A stretch of 64,000 bases of DNA from IMG/VR virus record IMGVR_UViG_3300021255_002694, one strand, 5' to 3'. The first letter of the stretch is position 1. Each line of letters starts with the position of its first letter. The notes under the pieces are model-generated. The model was not told the DNA's origin and did no database searches. It saw nothing but the letters and a program-made list of their open reading frames with translations. Source of the stretch: a virus. Taxonomy: Duplodnaviria > Caudoviricetes. The translations under genes and the position numbers were made by a program. This document shows, in pieces, positions 3,866-62,161 of the stretch.

Positions 3866-3940
3866 ATAAAAACTCCCTTAAATATAGATTTTATACACTT
3901 TATGTTTTGTAAAATCTATGTTAAGGGAGTTGTTTTTATG
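3866..3940 (+). promoter_or_regulatory. Long RNA hairpin occluding the SD and start codon of 3938..4234
   Basis: AACTCCCTTAA(A)TATAGATTTTATA (3871-3895) pairs with TGTAAAATCTATGTTAAGGGAGTT (3908-3931), which contains the SD AAGGGAG. Confidence 0.8.
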
Positions 3941-4234
3941 CGACTTATGATAAACGAAAGTGATTACAGATCGTGTAACCTAACATTTGAGAAACTACAG
4001 GCAGACCAATATGATATACTATGTAACGGTGAATCAGTTGGAACAATATACTGCCGCAGTTACTATAGCAATACTAGAAACCGTGTATGGACTGTTTTTG
4101 TTGAACTTGATTCATTCAAAGAAGACGATACTGCTTCATCTGTGGCTGATGCAAAGAATGTTGCAAAACGTCTTTGGCTTGAACTTAAAGATAAGGTAGA
4201 TAGATGGAACAGAAGCATGGGGAGTGATGTATAA
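3938..4234 (+). CDS. Hypothetical protein with MRLMINES leader (putative capsid-targeted internal protein)
   Basis: ATG at 3938 after SD; shared leader motif. Confidence 0.65.
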   Translation: MRLMINESDYRSCNLTFEKLQADQYDILCNGESVGTIYCRSYYSNTRNRVWTVFVELDSFKEDDTASSVADAKNVAKRLWLELKDKVDRWNRSMGSDV

Positions 4235-5010
4235 TGAAATTATATTTTGAAAACATAATTACCGATCTTAGAAAGAATGGAATAAAAATATCACAAGATA
4301 TGTTTGATGCTATAAATGAGTTTGTTGATATACAGAACTCTTTTGCAAGACCTGTTAATGTTGATAGGTGGCAAGATGTTAAAGGTAAGACTGTCCTGTT
4401 TACAGAGAACGGGAATATTGTTGCTGTATATGGTAACGATAAATTTATGTACAATCCAAATAAATTAAAGATTAGCCAAGCACCTGAGTATGATATATTT
4501 GAAATAGAAGTTCTTGGAACACATGTTCAAAATCGCCGTCAGGAGCGCAGAGACTACTTAAAAGGTCTTACAAGAACATCCGATTCACCATATTCAAATA
4601 CTCCAAAATCAACAACCTATATATGGGATAAGGACTGGAATCCGGAAGTAAATAAAGCATATTATTCTAAACTGTTACAGCGCAATCATTTGAATAAATA
4701 CGCACAGCAACTTGAAGATGCTTATGATGTAGTAAAAGATATGATAGATCAGCGTAAGGAGCGTCTTACAGGAAAAAGAACAGAGTATGATCGTATGATT
4801 ACAGATATATCAAGACAGATCGGTAAGATTGAAGATGAAATGATAGCTGCTGAGAGAGACTTTTCTTTCGATGTTGACAAACTTAAAAAAGAAATATCTA
4901 AACTGCCAAACCTTGTGAATAAGGCAAAAGAGTTCATGGAGACTGAGGAAAAAGAATATAAGTATTGGGGCAAGCGTAAGAAGATTCCGTATGATAAAAT
5001 AGAAAAATGA
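4234..5010 (+). CDS. Hypothetical protein, coiled-coil C-terminus, weak leader MKLYFEN
   Basis: 258-aa ORF coupled to the previous gene. Confidence 0.7.
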   Translation: MKLYFENIITDLRKNGIKISQDMFDAINEFVDIQNSFARPVNVDRWQDVKGKTVLFTENGNIVAVYGNDKFMYNPNKLKISQAPEYDIFEIEVLGTHVQNRRQERRDYLKGLTRTSDSPYSNTPKSTTYIWDKDWNPEVNKAYYSKLLQRNHLNKYAQQLEDAYDVVKDMIDQRKERLTGKRTEYDRMITDISRQIGKIEDEMIAAERDFSFDVDKLKKEISKLPNLVNKAKEFMETEEKEYKYWGKRKKIPYDKIEK

Positions 5011-5042
5011 TAATTTTGCATGAAAAATATTTGGAAAAATGC

Positions 5043-5071
5043 TTGACAAAACAGTTAAAATGTGATATACT
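5043..5071 (+). promoter_or_regulatory. Consensus sigma-A early promoter, extended -10
   Basis: TTGACA-17-TATACT with TG. Confidence 0.9.
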
Positions 5072-5122
5072 ATATTTATAAGAGATAAGTATGACTTGAT
5101 TGTAAACTTGGAGGATTTACCT

Positions 5123-5515
5123 ATGATTAAAAAGGAATTCAATAAACTTTATAAGGAAATTGAACAGATCAGACGAAAGATTGATTCTGGTAAACTCAAA
5201 TATTTCGGTGAAAAGAATTACATGAATGCATCCCCATATTATGTATTCCTCCGAAATGGGAAGTGGTTTAAGATTGAACTTGGTACAAAGATTATCCCTA
5301 CATTTAATAAGAATGATGTTGTGTTTATTCAGAAACATATCCTTCGTGATTCTACAGATACAAACTGGAAGTATACCCGTGATTATGTTGATAGTGACCG
5401 TGGATTCGTGAGATATTCTGGGTGTATCACAGATAATATTGATTACTTCCTTGATAGGGCAAACAAGTATAAGATAAATCTTGTTGATGAAATTGAAACA
5501 TATTATTGGGATTAA
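5123..5515 (+). CDS. Promoter-proximal hypothetical protein (paralog of 47094..47468)
   Basis: YVFLRNGKWF…NDVVFIQKH…STDT…YVDSDRG vs YFVIMGNGDLF…NDIVYIRKH…SIDT…YFDSDNG. Confidence 0.75.
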   Translation: MIKKEFNKLYKEIEQIRRKIDSGKLKYFGEKNYMNASPYYVFLRNGKWFKIELGTKIIPTFNKNDVVFIQKHILRDSTDTNWKYTRDYVDSDRGFVRYSGCITDNIDYFLDRANKYKINLVDEIETYYWD

Positions 5516-5530
5516 ATTGGAGTGATTTAT

Positions 5531-6103
5531 GTGAAACTAATGATAAGAGAAGATAGACTATCAATGTTGTCGGAAAGTGTCTTTTATAAGGCACTCCTTG
5601 AATTCCTCACGAAGGATACAGAGATAAAATACGCTGATGATTATATTGATAACTTTGATAAGTCGAAGAAACAGAGGTATGCAAAAGAATACCCGATCAG
5701 AGACATTAAAAATGACATTGCATCATTCATTGATGATTGGCTGAAAGAAATTAAAAGAGATTGTGATATATACTCTATGAAGAATAATCGTATGTCTGAT
5801 TCATATGGATTTTCTAATTATATTACTCTTTCATTTAATCGTCCGGCAGATCGTAGATTATACCAATTCTATCAAGATAACAGCGAAAAATATAATAATG
5901 TAAAATTTAGATTTTCAGAGCATGATCCTAAAAATGACACATCCGATATTGCCGATAGTGTGAACTTTGTCGGAAAGACGTTTAATCAGGCAGCAGATGA
6001 AATGAAGTGCAAAATTGAAAACTATGTAATTGATTTAAGATCAGCAGAAAAACAATATCTTAAAAAGCTAGATAAACAGGCAAAGAAAAAGAATCGGCGG
6101 TGA
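5531..6103 (+). CDS. Leader-bearing protein with YGxSNY…RFSEH motif (paralog of 21808..22362; possible nuclease fold)
   Basis: GTG start gives MKLMIRED; motifs shared with 21808. Confidence 0.7.
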   Translation: MKLMIREDRLSMLSESVFYKALLEFLTKDTEIKYADDYIDNFDKSKKQRYAKEYPIRDIKNDIASFIDDWLKEIKRDCDIYSMKNNRMSDSYGFSNYITLSFNRPADRRLYQFYQDNSEKYNNVKFRFSEHDPKNDTSDIADSVNFVGKTFNQAADEMKCKIENYVIDLRSAEKQYLKKLDKQAKKKNRR

Positions 6104-6108
6104 GCATA

Positions 6109-6393
6109 ATGATTATACTTGAAAATAAAACGATCGAAAAAGACATATTTGATTCTATAATCAGAACAGTTAAAACAAATTTCAATAAAAACAATTTCAG
6201 TTTTGATATTGATATCACTGATACTGTCAATATCTGGTGCGATAACGATAAAGATAAAACAGTGTTTATTCAAACACAGGATGAAGATTCATACGCAACA
6301 TTTACAAAGGATGATCTTGATAATGTTGATGAGGCGGATATAAAGGAGAGCATTGAATATCAGCTTAATGCAACCGGATCAGAGAATGAATAA
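6109..6393 (+). CDS. Acidic hypothetical protein (MIILEN leader)
   Basis: ORF 6100..6393, ATG at 6109. Confidence 0.65.
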   Translation: MIILENKTIEKDIFDSIIRTVKTNFNKNNFSFDIDITDTVNIWCDNDKDKTVFIQTQDEDSYATFTKDDLDNVDEADIKESIEYQLNATGSENE

Positions 6394-6402
6394 GATGCAA
6401 TG

Positions 6403-6442
6403 TAGAACTTACGTGAAAATTCCGTAAGTTCTATTTTTTTTT
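6403..6442 (+). terminator. Intrinsic terminator
   Basis: TAGAACTTACG / CGTAAGTTCTA stem followed by a T run. Confidence 0.85.
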
Positions 6443-6453
6443 ATAAAAACCAC

Positions 6454-6482
6454 TTGACATTTCATACAATATGTGATATACT
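6454..6482 (+). promoter_or_regulatory. Consensus sigma-A early promoter
   Basis: TTGACA-17-TATACT with TG. Confidence 0.9.
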
Positions 6483-6852
6483 ATATTTGTAAAATACTAC
6501 CAGAAAGGTGGAATCACATAAAAATGTTGTCATTTGCAAGCAAAAAGTGGACTGATTCTGAAAAAGAACATATCCGAAAAATGCAGGATGCGGTAGATGA
6601 ATCAAAAAAGATAAAAATTATGTACATTGCGACAGATGTTTCAACAGGAAATGTTTTATGTGAACTCAATAACATGCTTGATGTAATTAGCTGTATACAG
6701 GGATATGCAATAATGGTACTCGGAACACGTAATTACATCTTGAACGAGTTTTATTCAATGAATCATGTTACAAAGACTTATTCACATGAAAACACATCAT
6801 TTACGGTTGATGTAGAAGAACGTGTGTATATAGAGAACTGAGGTGCTTTAGC

Positions 6853-7269
6853 ATGACTGAGATTAAAAATGGAATCATTCGCTTCATGTTTGCCGGAAAT
6901 TCTATTTTCACAATAATTAAAGGCAATGAACATCATTCCTATAAAATTTATAGGAAAAAGACTGATGATGGTGTAAAAATTTATCATCTATATCTTAGAA
7001 AAGCAAATAAATGTACGTATAGCGGATACTTTAAGATTGAGGATAACAAACTGACATTCAAAAGAAGCTATAAGTACCGCTGTGATCATGCAGATGATGA
7101 TATTGCAGTTCTGCTTGATGTTGTTCACAACAGGAACAATCTTCCGGAAGATATTTCTGTGTATCACTCTGGAAGATGTGGTTGCTGTGGTCGCGTCCTG
7201 ACCGATCCAGAAGCTATTTCGCGTGGATTCGGACCAGAATGCTGGAAGAAAGTTAAAGATCATGTTTGA
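6853..7269 (+). CDS. DUF6011-like zinc-finger protein
   Basis: C-terminal GRCGCCGRVLTDPEAISRGFGPECW. Confidence 0.7.
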   Translation: MTEIKNGIIRFMFAGNSIFTIIKGNEHHSYKIYRKKTDDGVKIYHLYLRKANKCTYSGYFKIEDNKLTFKRSYKYRCDHADDDIAVLLDVVHNRNNLPEDISVYHSGRCGCCGRVLTDPEAISRGFGPECWKKVKDHV

Positions 7270-7540
7270 ATAAGGTTGGTGTGTTTATGTTCTATGTAAG
7301 AAAAATCGGCAAAGAATACAAGGTTTCAGAAGTTCAATCTAGTGAGGATTCAGGTGAGTTTGAATCATACATTGATGCGTACATATATGCCAAAGAAATG
7401 AGCGGCAATATCAGTCTTGAAAAATATAAAGAGGTAAAGTCTGACGAATATATGTACAGTCATCTTATAGATTCAGACACAACTGAATTAGAAAAAGACT
7501 TAAACAATTATTCAAAAAAGAAACGTGGTGAAAACAAAAA

Positions 7541-9580
7541 ATGACAGTAGATTACTCACGAGAGATAAATAAACTTGTAGAATACCTAAATACATGCAGA
7601 GATCAGTATTATAATCACAATAATTCTATTATCACAGATAAGCAGTATGATGATCTATTTGATCGGCTAAAAGAACTTGAAGAAGAATCAGGCATCATTC
7701 TTTCAAATTCTCCTACACAATCAGTAGGATATAATGCTGTAAGTTCATTGCAGAAAGTTAAACATGAGGAAAGATTACTCTCTCTTGATAAGACAAAGAG
7801 CGTTTCTGATGTTTTAAAGTTCTGCGGTACAAAGAATGTTATCTTCATGCATAAGATGGATGGACTTACTGTCGATCTAACATATGTTGACGGAAAGATC
7901 ACACAAGCACTTACTCGCGGCGGTGACGATGGATACGGTGAAGATATCACGCATAATGTAAAGTCAATTCTTGGTATTCCAACAACAATTCCAGTTAGCG
8001 GAAAGGTGCATATTTCCGGCGAAGCAATTATAACATATAAAGATTTTCAGTATATAAATTCTGGATTGAAAGAACCATATAAACATGTTAGGAATTGTGC
8101 AAGTGGAAGTGTTAGACAGTTTGACAGTGCTATCTGCGCACAAAGAAAAGTACGTTTTATTACATGGAATGCAAACGATCTATCAAAGAATGGAACAATG
8201 ATGTCTGGACTTGATGAAGCTGATAAACTAGGATTTATTACAGTATTTCGCAGAGGCGGAATGTCTGTTTCACGTATGATTGAAAAAGAGATTGCTGAAA
8301 TCTTTGATAGTTTCAAGAAACGTGCTGAGATGTTAAGTTATCCTATTGATGGAATTGTTATTATGTACGATAACATTGCATATGGTAAATCTTTAGGATC
8401 AACAGCACATCACCCTAGATGTGGTATTGCATATAAATTCTACGATGAAACAGTTGAATCAAAGCTAAGAGGAATTGAATACTCAATAGGTAAAACAGGT
8501 GTTCTAACTCCTGTTGCTATATTTGATCCGAGAGATATTGACGGAACTTCTGTGTCAAGAGCATCACTTAGCAATATATCTGTTCTAAAGTCTACACTAA
8601 ATGTTGCATTTGATGGTCAGATTGTAAACATATCAAAAAGAAACGCTGTTATTCCGCATATTGAAAGTGCTGATATTAGCGGAATCACTCTTGGAAGTAA
8701 AGTATTTACAGTTCCAGATAAATGTCCGTGCTGCGGAGAACCAACAGCTATTGTAACAGACAGCAATTCTGGTGTCGAAACACTTGTTTGCACTAATAAT
8801 AAATGCTCCGGCAGACTACTTAAAAAGTTCTCAGCGTTTGTTTCAAGAAGTGCAATGAATATTGACGGAATGTCTGAAAAAACTCTTGAAAAGTTTATTG
8901 ACATGGGTTTGCTAAATACATATTCAGATATTTTCAGATTGAAAGATTTTGCCGATAAAATTGTATGCCTTGACGGTTTTGCTGAAAAGTCTGTTACAAA
9001 GATGCTTGATTCTATTGAAAATGCAAAAAATACAACTCTTGTAAGGTTGTTTGTTGCACTAAATATTGATGGTATCGGCAAACAGACAGCAAATGATCTA
9101 TCAACATTTTTTGCCGATAATCCTGAAAATGTACTGAAAATGAAAACATCTGAAATTAGAGATAAACTAATTCATGTTGACGGATTTGGTGAAACTCTTG
9201 TTGATTCTATATGCAAGTGGCATGATTCAGATGAAGATATGAGTGAGTTCAGAAATCTACTCAGCTATATCACGATTGAAAGTACACCAGATCAAAAGTC
9301 AGATGTTCTAAATGGTCTAAAATTTGTTATTACCGGAAGTTTGGAAACATATAGGAATAGAAACGATCTTATTTCTGATATTGAGAAAAATGGTGGAAAG
9401 GTACAATCTTCTGTAAGCAAAGAGACTTCATATCTTATCAATAATGATGTAAATAGTACATCTGGTAAAAATAAAAAGGCAAAGGAACTTGGTGTTTCGA
9501 TAATTTCAGAGAAAGATTTTGTACGTCTTTTGAACGGCAATCAGCCGCAAAAATCTGTAAAAAAGAAAGGGTTGTTTTAA
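7541..9580 (+). CDS. ligA: NAD-dependent DNA ligase
   Basis: KMDG adenylation motif, TRG…GEDIT, RNxASGSVRQ, IDGIV, AYKF, Cys4 zinc finger, HhH repeats, C-terminal BRCT (FVITGSL). Confidence 0.97.
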   Translation: MTVDYSREINKLVEYLNTCRDQYYNHNNSIITDKQYDDLFDRLKELEEESGIILSNSPTQSVGYNAVSSLQKVKHEERLLSLDKTKSVSDVLKFCGTKNVIFMHKMDGLTVDLTYVDGKITQALTRGGDDGYGEDITHNVKSILGIPTTIPVSGKVHISGEAIITYKDFQYINSGLKEPYKHVRNCASGSVRQFDSAICAQRKVRFITWNANDLSKNGTMMSGLDEADKLGFITVFRRGGMSVSRMIEKEIAEIFDSFKKRAEMLSYPIDGIVIMYDNIAYGKSLGSTAHHPRCGIAYKFYDETVESKLRGIEYSIGKTGVLTPVAIFDPRDIDGTSVSRASLSNISVLKSTLNVAFDGQIVNISKRNAVIPHIESADISGITLGSKVFTVPDKCPCCGEPTAIVTDSNSGVETLVCTNNKCSGRLLKKFSAFVSRSAMNIDGMSEKTLEKFIDMGLLNTYSDIFRLKDFADKIVCLDGFAEKSVTKMLDSIENAKNTTLVRLFVALNIDGIGKQTANDLSTFFADNPENVLKMKTSEIRDKLIHVDGFGETLVDSICKWHDSDEDMSEFRNLLSYITIESTPDQKSDVLNGLKFVITGSLETYRNRNDLISDIEKNGGKVQSSVSKETSYLINNDVNSTSGKNKKAKELGVSIISEKDFVRLLNGNQPQKSVKKKGLF

Positions 9581-10525: not shown

Positions 10526-11000
10526 AGGTAAACCTCTTTTTGGTGATACTTCTAGTGCTGATCAGAGCGTTAAATTAAACAAGGTTGTAAAAGAAGATAA
10601 ACCAAAAAGAGGTAGACCTAAAAAGACCACAACTGTAAATGAACCTAAGAGTGAAACAGTTGTAAAACCTAAACAGAAACAACAGCCTATCAAACAGATT
10701 ACAAAGAAAAGAGTACCAGATCAGACAGATAAAAATGGTAAGTGGAGAGATTTCAATACATCTAAACCGGAATGCATGAAACCATGTGAGTTCTATGTCG
10801 ATACTGGAAAAGATAAAATTGATATCTTTTACGGGTATGTTGAAAGAGCCGGAGTAACAGTTACAGATGAACCGTATAAGATGCGAGTATTGCGTAAGAA
10901 ATATGGCAATCTTCAATACAGGGAAGTTAAAGGTTGTCAATCTGTAAATGACTGTCCGAATGGTTTTCCGCACTGTGATAAATGTAAGAAGAAGAATTGA
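10506..11000 (+). CDS. Basic protein with AT-hook-like KRGRPK motif and C-terminal Cys cluster
   Basis: KPKRGRPKK; C…C…HC..C. Confidence 0.6.
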   Translation: MKKNLNKGKPLFGDTSSADQSVKLNKVVKEDKPKRGRPKKTTTVNEPKSETVVKPKQKQQPIKQITKKRVPDQTDKNGKWRDFNTSKPECMKPCEFYVDTGKDKIDIFYGYVERAGVTVTDEPYKMRVLRKKYGNLQYREVKGCQSVNDCPNGFPHCDKCKKKN

Positions 11001-11023
11001 TGCAACTGAAAGAGGTTTTGCAA

Positions 11024-11926: not shown

Positions 11927-11973
11927 ATATTTACAAGGTTAAGGAAAACAAAAGCGATAGTGAGGTACATATT

Positions 11974-20892: not shown

Positions 20893-21309
20893 ATGAAACT
20901 TAGAATTATGGAATCTAATGATATCAATATTCGGAAAATCATGTTCCCGAGTGATGAAGCTAATGAATATTTAAAGCATGAGGATGAAAATGAATATCTC
21001 ACCGATATAAATAAAACTTGTATTGGAGAACTAATTGTAAACGATGATAACGGTGAGTTGATTGGAAAGGTATTTGTCTATAAGAAGAAGTATCCAGGAT
21101 TTATCTTTAATGTCGAAACTAAGCCGAAATATAGAGGAAAAGGTTTTGGAAAAATGCTTGTAGATGATGCAGTTAAAAAACTAGGCGGGTATGATCTAAC
21201 AGTAAAGAAAACAAACTATAGAGCAATTCAATTATATAGAGACTACGGGTTTGAAATTATATCTGATGGAAATGATGAATCAGAATGGTACATGAAACTG
21301 GAAAAATAA
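20893..21309 (+). CDS. GNAT acetyltransferase with MKLRIMES leader
   Basis: Motif A TKPKYRGKGFGKMLV, motif B N.RAIQLYRDYGF. Confidence 0.88.
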   Translation: MKLRIMESNDINIRKIMFPSDEANEYLKHEDENEYLTDINKTCIGELIVNDDNGELIGKVFVYKKKYPGFIFNVETKPKYRGKGFGKMLVDDAVKKLGGYDLTVKKTNYRAIQLYRDYGFEIISDGNDESEWYMKLEK

Positions 21310-21376: not shown

Positions 21377-21808
21377 ATGCTGAATCTTAGAGATGATTAT
21401 AAGAAAAATCTTGTTAGAAGCCTTGAATATATTATTGATCGCAACGAAGATATTGAAGTAGATATGAATAATAATAACAGAGATTATCTTGATTCTATAG
21501 AGATCATTGATTTTAAGTTTCATCGACACAGGGCGTATTGTCATGTTGTATTCCTGTGCGGAAAATACTATAAAGTAGATGCATTCATGAAAGTTGAGGA
21601 TGCAAAATTCATTCTTAATAATATTGATAAGATTGAATATGTGTACAATATTGATAAGATGTATGATACGATTCTTGGAGACTTACTGGACTTATATATA
21701 AAATATAATACAAACGGATACAGATATATGGAGTTCATGATGAAATTTAACGATCTTTTCACAAAAGACGATGCAATTAAATTTTTTGAGAAAGGTGATA
21801 ATTTATAA
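21377..21808 (+). CDS. Promoter-proximal hypothetical protein
   Basis: ATG at 21377 after GAGGTG; stop overlaps the next start. Confidence 0.7.
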   Translation: MLNLRDDYKKNLVRSLEYIIDRNEDIEVDMNNNNRDYLDSIEIIDFKFHRHRAYCHVVFLCGKYYKVDAFMKVEDAKFILNNIDKIEYVYNIDKMYDTILGDLLDLYIKYNTNGYRYMEFMMKFNDLFTKDDAIKFFEKGDNL

Positions 21809-22362
21809 TGAAACTATCAATAAGGGAGTCAGATAACAACGGTAATTTTATAATTTACATTGACATGTTGCCGTTTTTAGATGTTAAAGACAACATACAG
21901 TTACACGAAGATGATATACAGCCAGATCATGTATTCTCTAAAGATAAAAAGTATGACAATGAATTCGATACAAGGCAGTACATTTTGGCAAAATATATAG
22001 CACCATTTGCAAAAAGACTTGTTGAAGATTTTGATTTTGTTGTTGATTATGATGCACACTCATCTAGTGAAGGTAACTATGGTCTTTCAAACTATCTGAC
22101 TCTAACATTTGAACATCCAGACAATATAACCGAGAGCGAACTTGAAGAAACGTATATGTACACAATTAGATTTTCTGATCACGAAAATAAACATCCAGAA
22201 TTAGGTGCTGTTGAAGAAGTTGATATGACTGATATGAAAGCATCCAATTTGATGAAAGCTGGAATGAGAGTGTTTAAAAGAAAACTAAGTGATGTTCAGA
22301 GGAACATAGCGAAATTTGAAATTGAAAAATTTGGAGAACAACAAACATTTTTCGATATGTAA
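21808..22362 (+). CDS. Leader-bearing protein (MKLSIRES) with YGLSNY…RFSDH motif
   Basis: Paralog of 5531..6103. Confidence 0.72.
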   Translation: MKLSIRESDNNGNFIIYIDMLPFLDVKDNIQLHEDDIQPDHVFSKDKKYDNEFDTRQYILAKYIAPFAKRLVEDFDFVVDYDAHSSSEGNYGLSNYLTLTFEHPDNITESELEETYMYTIRFSDHENKHPELGAVEEVDMTDMKASNLMKAGMRVFKRKLSDVQRNIAKFEIEKFGEQQTFFDM

Positions 22363-37616: not shown

Positions 37617-37955
37617 ATGAAAGTAGAGATTACTCTAAGAGAAAGTGAATTGAATGCACTTGAAAGATACATAGATTTTTTAGTATCCTATAAAAAACCT
37701 TGTGTTGGATGTTCAGACACTCATTCATGTACCGGATGTGTAGCAAATGCAGAATGGAATAAAATGCATTCACAGTCATACAATCCAGTAAAGCACATCT
37801 ACACAAACCCATGCATGAAGAAGTACATAGATGCTTATAAAGAGGTTATTGAAGCTGAGATAGCAAAATTTGATGCCGAAAATAAATTTGAAGTTCTTAA
37901 AGACTTATATAACAATATGATAAATGACGAAATTACTGTAATAAAAGGAGAATAA
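37617..37955 (+). CDS. Cys-cluster hypothetical protein (paralog of 3012)
   Basis: PCVGC…CTGC…W. Confidence 0.7.
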   Translation: MKVEITLRESELNALERYIDFLVSYKKPCVGCSDTHSCTGCVANAEWNKMHSQSYNPVKHIYTNPCMKKYIDAYKEVIEAEIAKFDAENKFEVLKDLYNNMINDEITVIKGE

Positions 37956-46615: not shown

Positions 46616-46924
46616 ATGAAATTGAGAATAAGAGAATCTTCGGTTGATCCGCTAAATACAGTAAATCAAAATATAATTGCGGTCTTAAATTCTATTGAAA
46701 GAAGATTAGACAATATTGAATTTGATACTGTTCAAATAGATGACGGATATCTTGAAGTAAAGGCTATGAATACAGAAACAGATCAAAGTTGTTCATATGT
46801 ACTAGATATCTATAAGGGAGAACTAAATGTTGCATGTGACTGGTCAGATCGTATTCATAAATTCAGTGATATTGATTCATTCAAGGATTGGCTTGAAGAT
46901 GATATTGCAGATAACTTAATCTAA
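46616..46924 (+). CDS. Acidic protein with MKLRIRES leader; paralog of the C-terminal domain of 48207
   Basis: HKFSDIDSFKDWLEDDI vs EKFYDFKSFIDWLDEDI. Confidence 0.72.
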   Translation: MKLRIRESSVDPLNTVNQNIIAVLNSIERRLDNIEFDTVQIDDGYLEVKAMNTETDQSCSYVLDIYKGELNVACDWSDRIHKFSDIDSFKDWLEDDIADNLI

Positions 46925-47485: not shown

Positions 47486-48190
47486 ATGAAACTTATAGTA
47501 GAATCAATTAAACTTAAAATTTCAGAAAGCGTGAGTTTAGATGAGAGATTAGAAGATATTGGCAATTCAACATATTGTACAGATTCAGCACAAGATATTG
47601 CGAACTGGATTGTAAATAAACCAATGCCATACAGAGTTATATATGATAAAAAATATGATGTATGGTGCATTGCAGATGCAGAAGTTCAAACACATAAAGA
47701 TATGTCCATTGATATGTTTGATAGTAATTATCTGTATGGAATTGCAAAAGATTTAGATAATGATATTGAACTAATGCGAAAAGAAGATAATCTTAATGAT
47801 GGTTGGACAGATGCAGAAGTATATTCAGATTATCAGTTTGATCATTATAATATTAAAGGTTTAATTTTTATTCCTGAAAATATGGAATATAGAGATTATG
47901 AGGAATCTGGATTCTATTCCGCAAAAACAGAATTAGTAAATGGAACAATATTCACAACAAGACATAGTGAGTTTAGCGATTCTGGAATATTCAAACCCCT
48001 ATACATGAAACTAAAGATAATGGGAGCAATTAAGCCTGAAATAGAAGCATTATGGAAGAAAGCACTTCTACTTAAATTTGATCCAGATAAAATGCTGAAT
48101 TGGTTTTACGATACTGCTGGAAAACATGGATATTCAGATACCGAGATTAGCAGATTCATAGATGATCACCTAACTGACTATTTGAAATGA
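47486..48190 (+). CDS. Hypothetical protein with doubled leader MKLIVES-IKLKISES
   Basis: ATG at 47486. Confidence 0.72.
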   Translation: MKLIVESIKLKISESVSLDERLEDIGNSTYCTDSAQDIANWIVNKPMPYRVIYDKKYDVWCIADAEVQTHKDMSIDMFDSNYLYGIAKDLDNDIELMRKEDNLNDGWTDAEVYSDYQFDHYNIKGLIFIPENMEYRDYEESGFYSAKTELVNGTIFTTRHSEFSDSGIFKPLYMKLKIMGAIKPEIEALWKKALLLKFDPDKMLNWFYDTAGKHGYSDTEISRFIDDHLTDYLK

Positions 48191-48206: not shown

Positions 48207-49154
48207 ATGATCGAACTATATGATGATGAACTATTTAATGAAGATGAACAATTTGATGAAGCATATGCACAATCACCGCAGATGATGACAGTAAGAAACC
48301 AACTCATGAATAAACTCGGTGATGATTTTAGTGCTGTCGGTGGATCAATGAATCCGAAGATTTTAATTCAATATAAACAGAATCCTAAGATTGATTTTGA
48401 AATAACTCCAAATGGAAAGAATATTGATATTGTAGGTCGAATTGATAAAGTTCCGGACACAATACATAAGAAACGTGGTATTGCATATATGAGAGCTGGA
48501 AATATTATATATGATTATATCATGGATTTTATTGATGATAATGAAGAAAGGATTGAAGAAAATATGAAACTTGAAATTAGAGAATCTACAAAAGAGGAAT
48601 ACTTTGTTGGTGTATGGGGCAAAGATAAGCCAAAATATGACCAAGCATACATTGAAACACGTACATTCAGCAATCGACAAGATGCTTGGGAATTCGCGCT
48701 GAAATGGAATCTCAAAGGCTACTATGTCAATTTTGCATCAGATGAAGAATATGATGACGAAGATGGAGAATACAGTGAATGCACCTACAAACCATATGAA
48801 ATGGAAAGAACATTTAATTCAGTTCATGAGGCATACGAAGATAGTGAAAACTTTTCATATCTGGATGATCCATTCTCAGAACTAAAGAAAGCATTAAATA
48901 ACTATTTTAATGAATTCCACGATCCAGTACATACAAAAGTATATTATAAAAATCTAAACTATGACGATATTTGGGCTATGGATATGAAGGTAAGTGCATA
49001 TGACGGCACTTCTGAAAAAACATATTCTCTTGAATTCAGAGATGCATATGACGGAATTTTGTATGTAAGACCTCAAAACGGTTCATGGGAAAAGTTCTAT
49101 GATTTTAAGTCTTTCATTGACTGGCTAGATGAGGATATAGAGGGATTGTTCTAA
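48207..49154 (+). CDS. Multi-domain acidic protein with internal MKLEIRES motif (48564)
   Basis: 315-aa ORF; apparent fusion of leader-bearing units. Confidence 0.72.
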   Translation: MIELYDDELFNEDEQFDEAYAQSPQMMTVRNQLMNKLGDDFSAVGGSMNPKILIQYKQNPKIDFEITPNGKNIDIVGRIDKVPDTIHKKRGIAYMRAGNIIYDYIMDFIDDNEERIEENMKLEIRESTKEEYFVGVWGKDKPKYDQAYIETRTFSNRQDAWEFALKWNLKGYYVNFASDEEYDDEDGEYSECTYKPYEMERTFNSVHEAYEDSENFSYLDDPFSELKKALNNYFNEFHDPVHTKVYYKNLNYDDIWAMDMKVSAYDGTSEKTYSLEFRDAYDGILYVRPQNGSWEKFYDFKSFIDWLDEDIEGLF

Positions 49155-49596: not shown

Positions 49597-49854
49597 ATGG
49601 TTAAACTTATAAATGAATCTATTGATGATGTTCAACCAGAGATTGTCAAGGATCGCGGCGGAAAAATATACAAAGAAACACGAGATAAACTTGATCGCAT
49701 AACTAACTATCATACTGGTGTACTTGATACATATGCATATAAATTAAATGAGAATGAAAAATCAGCAGATATGACACTGCTTAAATTAGTTAATGACGCA
49801 GTAGAAGCATTGAAACAGCTTGATGAATATAAACATATAATTCCACGTAAGTAA
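49597..49854 (+). CDS. Small protein with MVKLINES leader, tandem paralog of 49904
   Basis: PEIVKDRGGK.YKET..KLD shared. Confidence 0.78.
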   Translation: MVKLINESIDDVQPEIVKDRGGKIYKETRDKLDRITNYHTGVLDTYAYKLNENEKSADMTLLKLVNDAVEALKQLDEYKHIIPRK

Positions 49855-49903: not shown

Positions 49904-50176
49904 ATGATTAAAATTATAAATGAATCTATGGAAGACTTTATGAATGTTGAACCTGAAATTGTTAAAGATCGTGGCGGAAAGATGTATAAAGAAACACAAG
50001 AAAAATTAGACAAATTAAACCGTGGTATTTTTTCAGATAGATATATAGTAGAATTAAACAAAGAAAAATTAGCTGATAAAACATTAGTTGAGATAACAAA
50101 TGAAGCATATGAAGCATGTATGAAGTTATCAGATTATCTTTTGGAAATGCGCCGCAGACAGATGTTTGGTAAATAA
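49904..50176 (+). CDS. Small protein with MIKIINES leader
   Basis: See 49597. Confidence 0.78.
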   Translation: MIKIINESMEDFMNVEPEIVKDRGGKMYKETQEKLDKLNRGIFSDRYIVELNKEKLADKTLVEITNEAYEACMKLSDYLLEMRRRQMFGK

Positions 50177-50287: not shown

Positions 50288-50659
50288 ATGATCAAACTTA
50301 AAATATGTGAAAGTCATGATGGCTTAACCACATTTGATAAAGATTGGGATTTTATAGAAGCTGTGTTTACACAGGCAAGACCTGGGCATTTTGGAATAGA
50401 AATACCACTTGATAGATATGATGATCGCACACGGAAAAATATTGTATCAGATATTCGTAAGTTAGTAAAAGCACAAGACGGAATGACAGTTGAGGAAACG
50501 ATCATAGAAGAATATAATGATATAAGTCCTGACGATGAACTATTTGAATGGGTTTCCGATGTTCTTTATGATATTGAAGATAAGGCACATGATAGCAAAT
50601 ATGAGAACTTTGCTGACACAGCTAGCTTACTGATACGTGGTACACATTTTTATTGGTAA
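50288..50659 (+). CDS. Protein with MIKLKICES leader
   Basis: ATG at 50288 after AAGGTG. Confidence 0.7.
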   Translation: MIKLKICESHDGLTTFDKDWDFIEAVFTQARPGHFGIEIPLDRYDDRTRKNIVSDIRKLVKAQDGMTVEETIIEEYNDISPDDELFEWVSDVLYDIEDKAHDSKYENFADTASLLIRGTHFYW

Positions 50660-50721: not shown

Positions 50722-51255
50722 ATGGCAGTTAGAAAGTTAAAAGAGAGTAAAACTCTTAAAAATTATGAAATAGCAGATATGCTTGTTGCAAATGGTTTTG
50801 GTAATGAAGAAGAAGGATACCTTGATTATTTTCTTCCAGATAATCCAAAATATGTTGCATCTGTAAATTTAGATGATATGGGTTCATATATTGATGACTT
50901 AGATGAGGGTGAACATGTATCACTACCGTATGCAAATAACGCTGATAGAAAAATTCTAAGAACTGAGGAAGATGTAGAGGAATTTCTCAGCTTTATTCAA
51001 GAACTAAATTACAGCGATATGTTTGAATCTAAGACACGTAAGACAGGAAAGAGAATTAAAGAAGAACTAGATTATGATGCAGTAACTATTGACGATATTG
51101 TAGATATATGTGATCACATAAAAGAAGATGCAGATAAAATAAAGAGAGTAGCATCAAATTATCCAGAAAACTATAATTCTGCTTGGAGAAATTATGCTGA
51201 GTTGAAAAACAAGTTAATTGACATAGAAACAATGCTGTATGAACTATGGAGATAA
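50722..51255 (+). CDS. Protein with MAVRKLKES leader and internal MFES…RIKEE linker
   Basis: ORF with SD GAGG. Confidence 0.72.
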   Translation: MAVRKLKESKTLKNYEIADMLVANGFGNEEEGYLDYFLPDNPKYVASVNLDDMGSYIDDLDEGEHVSLPYANNADRKILRTEEDVEEFLSFIQELNYSDMFESKTRKTGKRIKEELDYDAVTIDDIVDICDHIKEDADKIKRVASNYPENYNSAWRNYAELKNKLIDIETMLYELWR

Positions 51256-53031: not shown

Positions 53032-53078
53032 ATTCACATAATTTTACAATACAACCAAACCGAAAGGAGTTTTATACA

Positions 53079-54866: not shown

Positions 54867-54884
54867 AAGAGAGGTGAATATATA

Positions 54885-57800: not shown

Positions 57801-60800
57801 GTTCCGATAAGTATAAGTGGCACTATGCAAACATTAACTGGTACAAATATCCGAATTTATATTGTAAAACGTGATGGAGCTGTTTCTGGTTCTATTGCAC
57901 TAGGCGGAACTGGAAATGTAACAAAGACAGAAAACAGGTTAGGTGCCGGAATAAAGTTCGATTATACCTCTATTGGAACATGCACTGTATCTAACCTTAT
58001 GGTCAATTTCGGATCAACTGCACTTCCTTATGAACCATATGGATATAAAATACCAGTAACAATAGGTAGCAATACTAATTATATCTATACTAAAGAACCT
58101 ATTAGAAAAATTGGTAATTATGCTGATGTGGTTAATAGTGATGGTAGTATTACTAGATATATTAAGAAGATCGAGTTAAATGGAACAGAAAATATCATTC
58201 TTGGTTCTCCACAATCCGGAGGAAATGTATTTTCTATAACTGATCAAGATACAATAACAAGCAATGGTTCGTATTCAATATCTAATTACTATCGAAACGT
58301 ATATGGTAATAGTGGCGAGTACACATACATTTACAATGGAAGGATTATCCTACTAGATAAAAGCCATAGTACAGTCACATCATTTAAACAGTGGTTATCT
58401 GATGAATACAATTCGGGTAATCCAGTATGTGTGTGGTATGTAATGCAAACTCCAACAGCAGAACAAACAACAATACCAACACTAACAACAGTAAATGGAA
58501 CAAATACAGCAACAATAGGAACTACTCTAGCCCCATCAAGTATTACTATAAATGCCACTTCTAAAGTATATCCTAATAATCCTATTATTCCTGAATTTTG
58601 TGGAGTTAGGACAGAGAATCTTATTGATGCTACGATGTATGACAATCTTGCAAAATCTGTAGCATATCTATCTATGCTAGTATCCGTTCCGATTGTAACA
58701 TTGACGTCACCAGAAGGACTATACACAAGAGTTGTTTGGACACAATCAATGAATCCTGATACAAGAATCCATGAAAGTAACTGGATAACATCTGGAAACA
58801 GTGCAACATTTGATCTTGCATCATATAGTGATGCTGATTGTTTTAAGATAGAGTTTCGCAATGTCGAATATTCAATTTTAACTGATGAAGATATTGCACG
58901 TAGATTCAATATCATGCTTAACACTGGTTCTACTGCACTTCCTTATGAACCATATGGATATAAAATATCTTTTAATAATAATGGAGAGAATTTGTTTGAT
59001 TGTGATAGAACAGATGGCATTATTGATAATTCGTATATCAGAAAATCAGACAGTGAAATCGTAACAGACACAGACTACTATATCAGTTATCCTATTTATG
59101 TTTCTGAGAATGTGACATATACATGGAGATTTGATAGTGACACAAGTACAACACATTCAGCACCTACTGTCGGATTTTATGATTCATTAGATAACATGAT
59201 AGGAACTGCACCGCATGGTAACGGACTAACATATTTTTCATTCACTACTCCAAATGGGTGTAAATACATTCGTGCGTCTGTTTATAAGCATAACAACTTT
59301 CAGAGAGAAGCAATGCTTAATCTCGGATCAACACCATTACCATATTCTCCATATCTAAATAAAACAACTCCTATATATCTTAGTGAAGTTCCTACTATAA
59401 GAAGAATTAAGAAATTGGTGTTGACAGGAGATGGAGAATATCAAAATTACTCATATGATGGTACTAACGGTGTCCGAATCTTGAATATGTTGAAAACAAC
59501 ATACAAAAGAGCAGATGGGTTATGCAATATTTGTAAAGTATCAACAGTCGCAGGTATACGTCATTGTTTATGGATAGGTTCTGGTGGTGGTGATCCTCAC
59601 TTGTATTTTATATCCATACTTTCAGATATGGGACTATCCGATGCATCTGAGTTTAAATCATGGGTTGCACAACAATATCAAAACGGTACTCCGGTTACAA
59701 TATGGTATGCACTTGCAAATCCGGAAACAGGAATAGTAAATGAACCATTAGCAAAAATAGGAAATTATGCAGATGAACTAACAGAAATATCTGTTCATAA
59801 TCTTTCTGCTCCATTATATGGTATTGGAGATTATAAAGATATTCTAAATCTTTCTACTGGTGTTTTGACTAGGAAGATTAGGAAATTGGTGTTGGACGGC
59901 GTAAACGATGGAGAATGGAAAAAATCTTCAACGAGAACAGGCTCATTCTATTTGAATGTTGGAGTGAACGCAATCACTTCTTTAGGCTTATGTGACCGTG
60001 CTGTTAATGTGGATACAATCAGTCAGTACGATTCCATTGGAAAAATGTTCGTTGAATCAAGCGGTTCATCAAAGTTGATAAACTTGTGGCTTTTCGATAC
60101 CAATATATCGCTTGATGATTTCAAAGCATTTCTCGCCGCCCAGTACGCAAACGGAACCCCAGTCACGGTCTGGTACGTGTTGAATACTCCTAAAACCGAA
60201 ACTGTCACAGTTCCAACAGGAATGACAGGAGAAATAGAAGGATATTTAACACAGATCAGTACACCAACTCCGGAACATCCAAGTATACCGAAATGGAATG
60301 GAAAAGAAGAAACTGGTGGTACATATGCAGTTACAGTTTATGATCTTCCTGAAATTCCTACAACTACAGGAAAAAATACTTTGACAGTAGATACAACTCT
60401 AGCACCATATGATGTAACTATAAATGGACATATAAGATACACATATTGGGGTAAAATACGTGAAGATGTTAGAAGTGGATTGGCTCAAACAAAATTCCCA
60501 GTTGGAACAATCTTATATGATAACGAAGATGCAACAACAGGAAGAGCATTTCAAGTTGTAGGATATGATAAACATTTTGATCCATCACTAACAGCACGAG
60601 GATTCACTCATAGTATGACATTGTGTCAGTTAAAACTATCCGGACCGTGGCAATATGACGCAATAGAAGCATTTTTATATACAACTGTTGAAATGCAACC
60701 TGGAACATATAAATTCAAAATACCTAACTATGATACAACATATGGCGGTAATAAAACATACTATTTTACTTCTACTGCAACCGTTCCAGTTGATAGTCAA

Positions 60801-61556
60801 ATTGTATTAAAATGGGATTATCAAAAACCACCTGCTTCTGTAACTGCATATGCTGGTCCAAATCCGCAAACAAATACAACAGCAATAACAGGATTTAACG
60901 CTTTAACACTTACAGAATGGGTTGAGGGTGAATCACCGGAAGCTATTGATTTAGGAACAATAAAACTAGCAAACAATGATCCAGACAGTGCATATGGTAA
61001 ACTAAATCATATTCAACGTGCAAGATATGGTTCAAACAATTATTATCAATCTGGTTTGAGACAGTTATTGAATACAGACCTTGCGGCAAATAACTGGTGG
61101 CATCCAGCTACTATATTTGATAGACCATATGCAAATAGAACAACAAATGGTTATTTAAGATCACTAAATGAAGATTTTATAAATGTACTAGCAACACCTG
61201 AAATTACTAATATAACAAATAATGTATTTGAATATCCATCATTAGACGGAAGAACATTTGCACTAAATACAGAATATAAGATAAATACAGATAAGGTATT
61301 CTTACTATCTCATACAGAAGTTGGTCTATCTTCATCACCGAATGTTGGAACAGTATTAGATTATTATAGTACACATAATACAAATAATGATAGAATAAAG
61401 TATAGAATTGATAATGGAAATGCTTATCATTGGTGGTTTAGAACTCCTTACCCGTCTTACGCTCACGATTTCCGGTATTGTAGCACTTCGGGTGCTTTGG
61501 ACGTCAGCCATGCTCTCAATTACCTGTGCGTCGCCCCCGCTCACATCATCCAGTAA
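54885..61556 (+). CDS. Large tail-fibre/adhesin with repeated modules and a C-terminal CLec (DUF6273-like) DGR target domain
   Basis: Repeated TGSTALPYEPYG / EPLRKIG.Y.D / VWY.L.TP modules; C-terminus RYGSNNY..S.LRQ.LN…DKVFLLS..EVG…WWFRTP…VAPA.II. Confidence 0.85.
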   Translation: MLKSIVNGAEHDIVSIPMKGKNLSSFDAITYLNDDSYYVSYRILNSIPEGSYTLSYFVDVDPSVDSLAASIGVGSTIYEKDIKIVNSIDPGYINIPFSITDADAGKNLFVRFVRSGSKFTATITVTKVMLNTGSTALPYEPYGYQNGWEVRDNQNRLIWGREDELQTTTGTLPFKGYGLDIKEYSIDGNMVQAAEKEYSITGTSPLDFQSNGSNATISISGNETQASNQSYTTSCTSPLSFNADGTNLTALSMDGNMNQASSQPYTVSGTSPISFMNNGTAIDYTVSGNMSQSGTPTPTSPITPQECGERTNQLIPYPYYSADGVYDGITFTTDGNKIVANGTTSTGYNFYLWRVDKFPAGTYTLSVTGTHTGASIYVRDVTNSTTIVGIFGGQTGDRQISFTTTEELQVYVYINSSGTGTVDFDCSIMLNEGSTALPYEPNLYKVPLTIAGNTQNIYIKEPLRKIGDYSDTVNSDGSVTRVIKKIVLTGAESEWSSVGGQAPFLLTISGYSEISKSVPYYMSSHFKPIAYDDLWGTNDNFIVTYQTGFRFKYSTLGTDLNDFKTWLSTQYENNNPITVWYALQIPQTDTATVPTITPTSGNNTLSVDTTLAPSNITVTSNSSVFPENPITPIECGVLSENLFDNNQTTTNENGAERPGVELPVGTYSIYNTSGQAVYYRIGDSGTGAQVNNGNSKANIVANDTLYVWQYPKKDGVMVIEGATAPTEYEPYGKYKIPVTVGSTTKNIFINQPLRKIGNYSDSIGSDGVVTRNIKKLVLDGTENWSSYSEVVYLQDIIDYAKIDNIICMCTHYEPQTNVDGVAETDTGHIAFGKSSNYRLNIHDANINNATDYKLFLADEYSAGHPVEVWYILATPDTTETTTIPTISTVNGANTLTTGTPITPSNITISTSSSVYPKNPIYPEECGDRTGNVLDLDAYLKRDNNGYTKSGSTYTIPMQASLFANPWYFSNEDVPISISGTMQTLTGTNIRIYIVKRDGAVSGSIALGGTGNVTKTENRLGAGIKFDYTSIGTCTVSNLMVNFGSTALPYEPYGYKIPVTIGSNTNYIYTKEPIRKIGNYADVVNSDGSITRYIKKIELNGTENIILGSPQSGGNVFSITDQDTITSNGSYSISNYYRNVYGNSGEYTYIYNGRIILLDKSHSTVTSFKQWLSDEYNSGNPVCVWYVMQTPTAEQTTIPTLTTVNGTNTATIGTTLAPSSITINATSKVYPNNPIIPEFCGVRTENLIDATMYDNLAKSVAYLSMLVSVPIVTLTSPEGLYTRVVWTQSMNPDTRIHESNWITSGNSATFDLASYSDADCFKIEFRNVEYSILTDEDIARRFNIMLNTGSTALPYEPYGYKISFNNNGENLFDCDRTDGIIDNSYIRKSDSEIVTDTDYYISYPIYVSENVTYTWRFDSDTSTTHSAPTVGFYDSLDNMIGTAPHGNGLTYFSFTTPNGCKYIRASVYKHNNFQREAMLNLGSTPLPYSPYLNKTTPIYLSEVPTIRRIKKLVLTGDGEYQNYSYDGTNGVRILNMLKTTYKRADGLCNICKVSTVAGIRHCLWIGSGGGDPHLYFISILSDMGLSDASEFKSWVAQQYQNGTPVTIWYALANPETGIVNEPLAKIGNYADELTEISVHNLSAPLYGIGDYKDILNLSTGVLTRKIRKLVLDGVNDGEWKKSSTRTGSFYLNVGVNAITSLGLCDRAVNVDTISQYDSIGKMFVESSGSSKLINLWLFDTNISLDDFKAFLAAQYANGTPVTVWYVLNTPKTETVTVPTGMTGEIEGYLTQISTPTPEHPSIPKWNGKEETGGTYAVTVYDLPEIPTTTGKNTLTVDTTLAPYDVTINGHIRYTYWGKIREDVRSGLAQTKFPVGTILYDNEDATTGRAFQVVGYDKHFDPSLTARGFTHSMTLCQLKLSGPWQYDAIEAFLYTTVEMQPGTYKFKIPNYDTTYGGNKTYYFTSTATVPVDSQIVLKWDYQKPPASVTAYAGPNPQTNTTAITGFNALTLTEWVEGESPEAIDLGTIKLANNDPDSAYGKLNHIQRARYGSNNYYQSGLRQLLNTDLAANNWWHPATIFDRPYANRTTNGYLRSLNEDFINVLATPEITNITNNVFEYPSLDGRTFALNTEYKINTDKVFLLSHTEVGLSSSPNVGTVLDYYSTHNTNNDRIKYRIDNGNAYHWWFRTPYPSYAHDFRYCSTSGALDVSHALNYLCVAPAHIIQ
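61431..61556 (+). repeat. Putative DGR variable region (VR)
   Basis: Abrupt GC rise; variable positions are NNC/NNT codons (TAC, CAC, GAT, TTC, AGC, GAC, GTC, CAT, CTC…) as expected from AAC/AAT templates; ends in GC-rich GTCGCCCCCGC. Confidence 0.75.
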
Positions 61557-61557
61557 T

Positions 61558-61599
61558 CGCGTAATCGCCGTCCGTTAGGGCGGCTTACGCGAAGCGTAA
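61558..61599 (+). promoter_or_regulatory. DGR target-recognition-like hairpins
   Basis: GCCGTCC-GTTA-GGGCGGC (61567-84) and TTACGC-GAA-GCGTAA (61585-99) directly after the VR stop. Confidence 0.7.
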
Positions 61600-61628
61600 A
61601 ATACAAAAAAGAAAGGTAATAAAAATAT

Positions 61629-61703
61629 ATGTCAGTTCCAGTATTTAAAAGAACAGAAAATAAACTCCAAGCATTAAAAGATACAATTACAATGACTTCA
61701 TAA
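61629..61703 (+). pseudogene. avd: Truncated Avd (DGR accessory protein) N-terminal stub
   Basis: SD GAAAGG then MSVPVFKRTENKLQALKDTITMTS*, resembling the MSV.k.kR.e.kl start of Bacillota-phage Avd proteins, in the canonical position after the target. Confidence 0.6.
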
Positions 61704-61707
61704 AAAA

Positions 61708-61723
61708 TGTTCCATGTGGAACA
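61708..61723. promoter_or_regulatory. parS-like palindrome
   Basis: TGTTCCATGTGGAACA, one mismatch to the parS palindrome TGTTCCACGTGGAACA, extended by AAAA/TTTT. Confidence 0.6.
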
Positions 61724-61778
61724 TTTTACAGATTATATAAACAATAAATAATCAAAAATATAATACACAATTACTTTA

Positions 61779-61808
61779 TCCATAGTAGTCTGAAATGGCT
61801 ACTATGGA
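61779..61808 (+). promoter_or_regulatory. Hairpin upstream of 61844
   Basis: TCCATAGTAGTC / GGCTACTATGGA. Confidence 0.65.
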
Positions 61809-61843
61809 AGATTTTGAAATTTAAGTAGAAAGGTTGATATATT

Positions 61844-62161
61844 ATGGTAAAGAAAGTAAACAGAAATGAGTCTATTGGCTATAAACGCAGATCAAGAAGA
61901 ATGAATGAGAGTAATGGTACTATAAACGATCTTGAATTTTATATAGCACAAATTCATGATACCGCCGATGAAATAGCTAGATTATCAGATCATGCTACAG
62001 ATATTGTTAATAATTATCAAGAAATTGAAGATGATTCCAGAGAACTAAGAAGAACAGAAAACGATCTTTTAGGGTTTGTAAAAGAGTTACAAATGTGGAA
62101 AGAAGGATTTGCAAATTATATCGGTCAAATGGAAGAATTGGTTGACAACGTACTGCTGTAA
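61844..62161 (+). CDS. Coiled-coil protein with basic leader containing two xNES sites
   Basis: MVKKVNRNES…RRSRRMNES. Confidence 0.72.
   Translation: MVKKVNRNESIGYKRRSRRMNESNGTINDLEFYIAQIHDTADEIARLSDHATDIVNNYQEIEDDSRELRRTENDLLGFVKELQMWKEGFANYIGQMEELVDNVLL

Follow-up and report, generated by a model that had tools for sequence, protein, structure and literature searches.

A recurrent N-terminal MKLxIxES peptide in an uncultured T4-type jumbo phage as a candidate counterpart of the T4 capsid-targeting sequence

Why should some 14 proteins of one phage, most of them with different bodies, begin with nearly the same few residues? The question is raised by a stretch of 64,000 nucleotides (hereafter the window) from IMG/VR virus record IMGVR_UViG_3300021255_002694 (Duplodnaviria; Caudoviricetes), for which a sequence-only reading had proposed that a shared leader, MKLxIxES, loads a varied cargo into the head for delivery at infection. 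The tag has the consensus M-(K/R)-(L/I)-x-(I/V/L)-x-E, usually followed by Ser, and is 7 to 8 residues long. Our analyses indicate that it is likely to be this phage's counterpart of the capsid-targeting sequence (CTS) of phage T4, that is, a propeptide of the T4 CTS kind that follows the T4 L/I-x-E cleavage grammar and would be loaded and trimmed in the head. Within this reading we are more confident of the protease site than of the tagged proteins being injected effectors.

The window DNA has 33% G+C, and its coding is almost all on the plus strand. Its proteins match letter for letter a 323,500-bp metagenomic scaffold (ENA ERZ28612978 scaffold_7), window position 1 corresponding to scaffold position ~270,015. 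The scaffold end falls within the window, inside or near the gene for a 2223-amino-acid fibre, and the assembly is therefore circular or permuted. Together with loci reached by stepwise identity matches along the scaffold, approximately 131 kb of the approximately 323-kb phage genome was covered, so that all genome-wide counts given here are extrapolations. Shine-Dalgarno sites are long matches to AGAAAGGAGGTGATC; judged from these and from the promoter signals, the host is probably of Firmicutes type.

Strong members of the tagged set were defined by hydrophobic-x-E-S within 12 residues of Met1. They start at window positions 3938, 20893, 21808, 46616, 47486 (in tandem), 49597, 49904, 50288 and 50722, with 37617 added. 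The tagged genes of the window, weak variants and candidates included, are as follows (a slash before the last residue marks the candidate cleavage point).

3938..4234, plus strand: 98-residue ORFan, leader MRLMINE/S; no Pfam or PHROG match
4234..5010, plus strand: 258-residue protein, weak leader variant MKLYFE/N (start peptide)
5531..6103, plus strand: 190-residue protein with GTG start, MKLMIRE/D and a second site M-L-S-E/S at residues 12-16; distant paralogue of 21808
6109..6393, plus strand: 94-residue acidic protein, weak leader variant MIILE/N (start peptide)
20893..21309, plus strand: GNAT acetyltransferase, leader MKLRIME/S (Pfam Acetyltransf_1, E 1.8e-11)
21808..22362, plus strand: 184-residue ORFan, leader MKLSIRE/S, kept in distant homologues
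37617..37955, plus strand: 112-residue protein, MKVEITLRE/S, candidate member from the motif count
46616..46924, plus strand: 102-residue acidic ORFan, leader MKLRIRE/S (start peptide and pattern matches)
47486..48190, plus strand: 234-residue ORFan, tandem leaders MKLIVE/S-IKLKISE/S (start peptide and six-frame pattern)
48207..49154, plus strand: 315-residue two-domain protein, internal MKLEIRE/S at residues 120-127 (nucleotides 48564-48587)
49597..49854, plus strand: 85-residue protein, leader MVKLINE/S; paralogue of 49904
49904..50176, plus strand: 90-residue protein, leader MIKIINE/S; paralogue of 49597
50288..50659, plus strand: 123-residue acidic ORFan, leader MIKLKICE/S (start peptide and six-frame pattern)
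50722..51255, plus strand: 177-residue acidic ORFan, leader MAVRKLKE/S (start peptide)
61844..62161, plus strand: 105-residue protein, two N-terminal E/S sites with a basic linker between them (..NRNE/S IGYKRRSRRMNE/S)

All 14 starts listed in the sequence-only reading have the coordinates and peptides it gave, the copy at 48564 being internal to the open reading frame (ORF) 48207-49154; 37617 was absent from its list. The two weak variants recur elsewhere: the hexapeptide MKLYFE also begins an unrelated 204-residue protein adjoining the head module, and MIILEN an unrelated 272-residue protein. Of the two sites in 61844, the second (R-M-N-E-S) alone fits the motif, the first being weak; the basic-h-x-E/S grammar (h, hydrophobic) of this protein is that of the linkers in a 517-residue polyprotein adjoining the head module.

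The motif is strongly enriched at protein starts. Within the first 12 residues, [ILV]-x-E-S was found in 10 of the 114 window genes, against 1.18 expected from its rate in the interiors of the same proteins, and the control tetrads [ILV]xDS, [ILV]xQS, [ILV]xKS and [ILV]xEA were found there in none of the 114. In the six frames of the window, [KR][LI]x[IVL]xES has nine matches, seven of them on the plus strand: five straight after Met1, one a residue further (MIKLKICES) and one that is the tandem copy in 47486; the match at 48564 comes after an internal Met. At the DNA level, the pattern for M-K-h-x-h-x-E-S is matched four times compared with 0.21 times in shuffles, and none of 100 shuffles reached four. 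The proposed enrichment over background is thus borne out. Over the 131 kb, 22 of the 26 matches to [KR][LI]x[IVL]xE within long ORFs lie within one residue of the start codon. Strict N-terminal tags number 19, which extrapolates to approximately 50 per genome and more if loose variants are included; we estimate at least 50 cargo genes per genome. Overall about 8-12% of genes, from many unrelated families, begin with the tag, while the tail fibres, endolysin, ligases, kinase, adenylosuccinate-synthetase-like enzyme and other identified enzymes do not carry it.

Between copies the synonymous codons vary, with Ser written as AGT, AGC, TCT or TCA, Leu as CTT, CTA or TTG and Arg as AGA or AGG, and conservation is therefore at the level of the peptide, not of DNA or RNA. 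This bears on the possibility that the tag is unrelated to the capsid and is instead a signal for another cytoplasmic protease of host or phage, a degron, or a translation-initiation optimum of AT-rich 5' ends. Starts with MK- are indeed frequent in low-GC genomes, and many of the tagged genes lie in early operons (see below). The use of both Ser codon families (AGY and TCN) and of three Leu codons argues against such a signal, and further evidence comes from where else the same tetrad is found.

Judged by its genes, the phage has a head of the T4 type: the portal is gp20-like, the capsid protein belongs to the gp23 family, and a gp21-type S77 protease is fused to the scaffold. The head module (locus L014, scaffold positions 46,211-66,897) encodes, in order, an 810-residue MJ0330_N protein, Portal_T4, a 151-residue protein, Peptidase_S77, Gp23, a Big_2 protein and a gp13-like neck protein; positions within the locus are given for the following.

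10906-13338: 810-residue MJ0330_N protein (Pfam) with an intein signature, adjoining the portal gene
13354-15117: Portal_T4, 587 residues (Pfam)
15645-17471: Peptidase_S77 with a long coiled-coil tail, 608 residues (Pfam PF03420)
17516-18871: Gp23-family capsid protein, 451 residues (Pfam Gp23)

Against T4 gp23 structures the capsid protein gives E about 1e-21, and the protease domain aligns to T4 gp21 (5JBL) at E 8.7e-6, keeping GELDHP and GVSSRG where T4 has GELNHP (His85) and GVSSRG (Ser140). Because the protease is fused to the scaffold, it would act inside the prohead. Its N-terminus, MPQVLIE/T, resembles ..PQLLIE/T of T4 gp21, which is a probable autocleavage site in the T4 literature (PMC9026906). 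The protease-scaffold protein has 11 h-x-E-S tetrads after residue 25, compared with 1.29 expected (p 1.3e-7), making it the strongest outlier for this tetrad among 187 proteins. As a positive control, the T4 scaffold gp22, which gp21 cuts to pieces after L/I-x-E (PMC9026906), has 16 [IL]xE sites in 269 residues. The capsid protein carries I-C-E63/A, 13 residues ahead of the conserved F..VVPNLI block. In an alignment of four major capsid proteins (MCPs), from this phage and its three nearest cultured relatives, Glu 63 is invariant, every P3 residue is hydrophobic, and A, T or S stands at P1'; Leu and Glu are likewise invariant in another L-x-E, at residues 24-26. The corresponding T4 gp23 sequence has an L-T-E/A site, at which 65 residues are lost (PMC9026906). 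Directly upstream of the head genes is a dense run of tagged genes, among them that of the 517-residue protein, which is split by five basic-h-x-E/(S/A) linkers, and several other proteins of the run have a second site in mid-chain. The predicted presence of the same sites in capsid and scaffold precursors was thus found, and the S77 protease with its His and Ser motifs, together with the portability of the leader, supports the earlier proposal of a T4-like CTS removed by a gp21-type protease. A 155-residue protein at window positions 35400-35867 was considered as a dead prohead protease, which could not be established: its only match, to Peptidase_S78 (E 0.0012), scores 19.4 bits, below the cutoff of 21, and PHROG and PDB searches returned none.

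In T4, the CTS is carried by the internal proteins IPI-III and Alt and processed by gp21 (Mullaney and Black 1996, reviewed in PMC9026906, PMC3012670). This protease cuts after L/I-x-E, the 10 residues of a CTS are enough to have a protein packaged, and the scaffold ends up in numerous pieces (PMC9026906, PMC3012670). Relatives of T4 also carry tagged internal proteins, in sets that vary (PMC9026906). The system described here shares with T4 a short propeptide at the N-terminus, which ends in hydrophobic-x-Glu and stands on fast-evolving proteins that are otherwise unrelated. Also shared are the catalytic motifs of the S77 protease and the occurrence of the cleavage motif in the scaffold (many sites), in the capsid protein (an N-terminal maturation site) and at the protease N-terminus (LIE). 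In both, the set of cargo genes varies between related phages. The consensus M-K-L-x-I-x-E, in contrast, has 7-8 residues rather than 10, with no evident sequence similarity, and there is a strong, though not absolute, preference for Ser at P1'. The 19 or so strict copies in 131 kb, or about 50 per genome by extrapolation, compare with a handful in T4. Further differences are the fusion of protease to scaffold, the polyprotein-like cargo with basic linkers, the host, which is probably a Firmicute, and the fact that the present system is known from genes alone.

The nearest cultured relatives, at 38-42% identity of the capsid protein, are Bacillus phage SP-15, Listeria phage LIS04 (Thornevirus group) and Streptococcus phage GXN1. 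The capsid protein was the sole query to yield cultured relatives, searches with the RNA ligase and the exonuclease returning no close one. The Thornevirus group and GXN1 share the head gene order of portal, small protein, S77 protease-scaffold fusion, gp23-type MCP and gp13-like neck protein; the scaffold of SP-15 is also rich in h-x-E-(S/N/A), and the Glu site of the MCP is conserved across the cultured relatives. As a control, the whole SP-15 genome (222 kb) was analysed with the same gene caller and statistics. N-terminal h-x-E-S occurs there five times, with 5.3 expected, and 16 times in the studied phage, with 3.3 expected; the enrichment therefore does not stem from the method, and the expansion is lineage-specific. 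The DNA pattern for MKLxIxES was at chance level in SP-15, LIS04, GXN1 and the 595-kb uncultured phage LR756511. SP-15 differs in having only about four proteins with a candidate tag, of another form, M-x-I-x-F-(L/V)-R-E-(S/A/G/N), which may represent its own small set of tagged head proteins:

SP-15 (KT624200) 15673, 192624, 195365 and 196812: starts of four proteins beginning M-x-I-x-F-(L/V)-R-E, one of them just upstream of the terminase gene

These comparisons also bear on the possibility of a signal unrelated to the capsid. N-terminal [ILVMF]xE followed by a residue other than S, N, G, T or A is mildly enriched in the studied phage (39 against 20 expected) and also in SP-15 (64 against 43), which would suit a general N-terminal signal. 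SP-15, however, has no h-x-E-S enrichment in the same analysis. In addition, the tetrad is concentrated in the scaffold, at the maturation position of the capsid protein and at internal domain junctions, a distribution that a translation signal cannot explain. A model for cleavage by a non-capsid protease is Prp of Firmicutes, which removes an L27-type leader; such leaders end in aromatic-Phe/Ala-Ser, as in Firmicutes L27 and in head proteins of staphylococcal phage 80alpha. All strong tags of the studied phage end in Glu, with no Phe-Phe or Phe-Ala, so that they are not of the Prp type, and one neighbouring protein, MIKLNLNLFEFE (L010:974-1192), resembles such a leader only loosely. With Glu at P1 and Ile or Leu at P3, the tags follow the grammar of T4 gp21 (PMC9026906) rather than Phe-Phe/Ala. 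We consider a role outside the capsid improbable.

A common N-terminus could also be a relic of common descent, in which case the tagged proteins would be one fast-evolving family of paralogues whose bodies have diverged beyond recognition. Kinship was assessed by all-against-all BLAST after removal of the first 12 residues. Three links were found: 49597 and 49904 are paralogues (51% identity), 5531 and 21808 are distant paralogues (26% identity), and 46616 and 48207 have a C-terminal motif in common. No further kinship among the tagged genes of the window was detected in this comparison, so the description of the bodies as mostly unrelated holds for most of them and fails for these three pairs. 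Modules of promoter, partner gene and tagged gene that recur in the window (the partners 5123 and 47094 match at E 2e-11; see below) are also what descent would produce. The tag, however, is carried by distinct established families, namely GNAT in the window and S-AdoMet_lyase, SprT-like and DUF3293 proteins outside it, adjoining the head genes. It is missing from close GNAT orthologues, and it also stands inside the scaffold and at fusion junctions. Common descent as the source of the tag is accordingly the least probable of the explanations considered here, and a very improbable one.

The GNAT gene provides the clearest view of a tag that moves. Its homologues, 56-72% identical, fall into two groups, one starting with MKLRI(M/V/R/K)ES and a linker of one to three residues, the other starting 8-10 residues further on, where conservation of the domain sets in. 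In the tagged group P2 is the sole variable position of the tag. Two longer homologues have an extra C-terminal domain, joined through K-I-N-E-S or E-I-D-E-S, and the same tetrad therefore marks a domain boundary; this extra domain has no homologue in the window or in loci L001-L011. Nucleotide alignment with the corresponding locus (L015) of a syntenic 319.5-kb relative showed that the flanks and the 3' half of the gene are at least ~90% identical, while the 5' half, including the Shine-Dalgarno site and the tag, is replaced. This mosaic shows that recombination added or removed the tag. Homologues of 21808 as distant as 26% identity all keep residues M1, K2, L3, I5 and E7, with variation at positions 4 and 6 and in the next ten residues, which form the linker. 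The internal MKLEIRES of 48207 is invariant in all homologues found, all of which are fused; those that were aligned are 80-95% identical. The tag is thus portable, being found on unrelated proteins and present or absent among ~70%-identical GNAT orthologues.

The operons in which tagged genes lie bear on when their products are made. The window contains eight near-identical strong host-type promoters (TTGACA-N17-TGnTATACT, then ATATTTA), several of which come after a terminator hairpin and which would define early operons:

Promoter regions in the window: 5043-5122, 6440-6523, 11890-11973, 21310-21376, 22460-22540, 26830-26915, 32560-32677 and 46930-47093

Three of these head a recurring module of promoter, untagged partner gene (~125-143 residues) and tagged gene (184-234 residues), at 5123-6103, 21377-22362 and 47094-48190. 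The partners 5123 and 47094 are paralogues, and the entire module 21377-22362 is missing from L015. Matches to a T4-like late promoter (TATAAATA-like, (A/C)TATA(T/A)A(A/T)A) upstream of some tagged and some structural genes were not taken as evidence, given 25 matches in the AT-rich DNA of the window. Upstream of the GNAT gene, at 20835-20880 (L015 9935-9985), ACTATA(T)A is followed by a GC-rich hairpin (GCGGTAGA..TCTGCCGC), which is kept in L015 even though the 5' coding half downstream is replaced there. Similar hairpins precede 601, 3938, 49597, 53079 and 61844.

If the tag is a genuine site for the head protease, the tagged proteins might still be mainly structural, that is, core, inner-body or scaffold-like head fillers rather than injected effectors, with the tag marking trimming only and targeting residing elsewhere. 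Several features fit such a role. Tagged proteins are rich in Asp and Glu (median 18.8% compared with 15.2%, p 2e-4; isoelectric points do not separate tagged from untagged proteins, p 0.085), many are ORFans, and the dense tagged cluster adjoining the head genes has polyprotein-like members. Among giant phages, those of the phiKZ type have small P3 residues (S/A/G-x-E) and long propeptides, with no common short N-terminal tag. An inner-body system of that type does not describe the present case, where P3 is I, L, V, M or F in both tags and scaffold sites and the head genes are Portal_T4, Gp23 and S77. The resemblance to phiKZ, 201phi2-1 and SPN3US, which have processed head and inner-body proteins (PMC9026906, PMC5694885, PMC10052503), lies in a large head with many different proteins, cut in those phages after Glu by a diverged gp21 homologue. 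Their propeptides have redundant sites, and their ejection proteins are delivered to the host; the many processed head proteins of phiKZ and SPN3US (PMC9026906) would also be a precedent for structural fillers. Against a mainly structural role, the tag is found on enzyme families typical of host takeover or anti-defence (GNAT, S-AdoMet_lyase, SprT-like), tagged genes are dispersed in early-type operons far from the head genes, and the tag comes and goes between close orthologues, unlike essential structural parts. We regard this explanation as unlikely, though it is the strongest of the three alternatives. As to the cargo that the sequence-only reading had named, the acetyltransferase at 20893 is confirmed by Pfam Acetyltransf_1, whereas putative nucleases in the window found no support, the GNAT being the only tagged protein there with a family match in Pfam and PHROG searches.

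Returning to the T4-like propeptide, we infer packaging of the tagged proteins in virions, their cleavage and their injection by analogy with T4. The tag would dock a protein onto the scaffold core during prohead assembly. After closure of the shell, the protease would cut after Glu, removing the tag, splitting polyproteins, trimming the capsid protein and destroying the scaffold. The mature and mostly acidic cargo would then remain in the head, enter the host with the DNA and act before phage gene expression. Candidate cargo includes the GNAT of the window and the SAM-lyase-like, SprT-like and DUF3293 proteins adjoining the head genes. For a selected N-terminal site of a prohead-bound protease, the simplest explanation is that substrate and protease meet in the prohead.

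Several points weigh against this reading. No virion proteomics was found for this phage, SP-15 or any close relative, and presence in the head and cleavage are predictions. The tagged genes 5531, 21808 and 47486 are in operons behind strong host-type promoters, which suggests that they are expressed early, although cargo of the head has to be available late; this is a mild complication. P1' is not always Ser, being N, D, E, V or K in a cluster of seven genes just upstream of the window. Compared with the T4 CTS, the tag has fewer residues, and no sequence similarity between the two was noticed. The estimate of at least 50 cargo genes is far above any characterised case. Finally, the targeting role, as distinct from the cleavage role, is one that we infer from T4, where loading of a foreign protein by the tag alone has been shown only for IPIII (PMC9026906).

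Other features of the phage were observed in passing. The 810-residue MJ0330_N protein might be the terminase, a guess from position alone; it has a 417-residue paralogue (34% identity, E 3e-53) at L008 15889-17142, among tail-fibre and lysis genes. The adenylosuccinate-synthetase-like gene at window positions 31381-32559 matches phrog_1211, an adenylosuccinate-synthetase variant (E 6e-35), and could, if PurZ-like, point to 2-aminoadenine DNA. In the region 51412-61556, several BLAST segments (best E 3e-27) reveal repeated domains common to a 520-residue protein and the 2223-residue fibre, which ends in DUF6273. Searches with the 520-residue protein against phages by megablast and tblastn gave no match, nor did a scan of viral contigs. 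L015 carries an OrfB_IS605 / Cas12f-like TnpB gene (6624-7856, 410 residues) in a region otherwise syntenic with the window. Locus L010 encodes a 359-residue protein with a PemK_toxin domain (6060-7139) and a 717-residue BspA-type leucine-rich repeat protein (1457-3610), which starts VKLMLLDED and has an internal MKLSIKES 138 residues before its end.

The principle of tagged internal proteins has been known from T4 since 1996. What is new is that a distant T4-type jumbo phage, whose host is probably a Firmicute, has a tag consensus of its own, that approximately a tenth of the examined genes carry it, recognisable enzymes among them, that some of the cargo is polyprotein-like, and that there is direct evidence of tag gain and loss between strains. 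Proteins injected with phage DNA act before phage gene expression and are prime candidates for anti-defence functions, yet they are rarely predictable from sequence. The tag would mark dozens of candidate cargo proteins, mostly ORFans, in an uncultured jumbo phage, so that small acidic proteins otherwise unknown would become a class that can be tested. It also suggests that sets of cargo may grow far larger than in the T4 paradigm, and it would offer a compact tag with which foreign proteins could be packed into a large capsid, a use to which the T4 CTS has already been put. A bolder form of the proposal, which we put forward tentatively and rate at somewhat under an even chance, is that roughly a tenth of the genes (50-80) constitute a capsid-delivered arsenal, including enzymes (GNAT, SAM-lyase-like, SprT-like) and polyproteins cut by the head protease, and that a 7-residue tag, gained and lost by recombination, decides whether a protein is produced in the cell or travels in the virion. 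If true, this would be the largest known pre-packaged effector set of any phage, and it would supply a rule by which the injected proteins of uncultured T4-type phages could be predicted from sequence.

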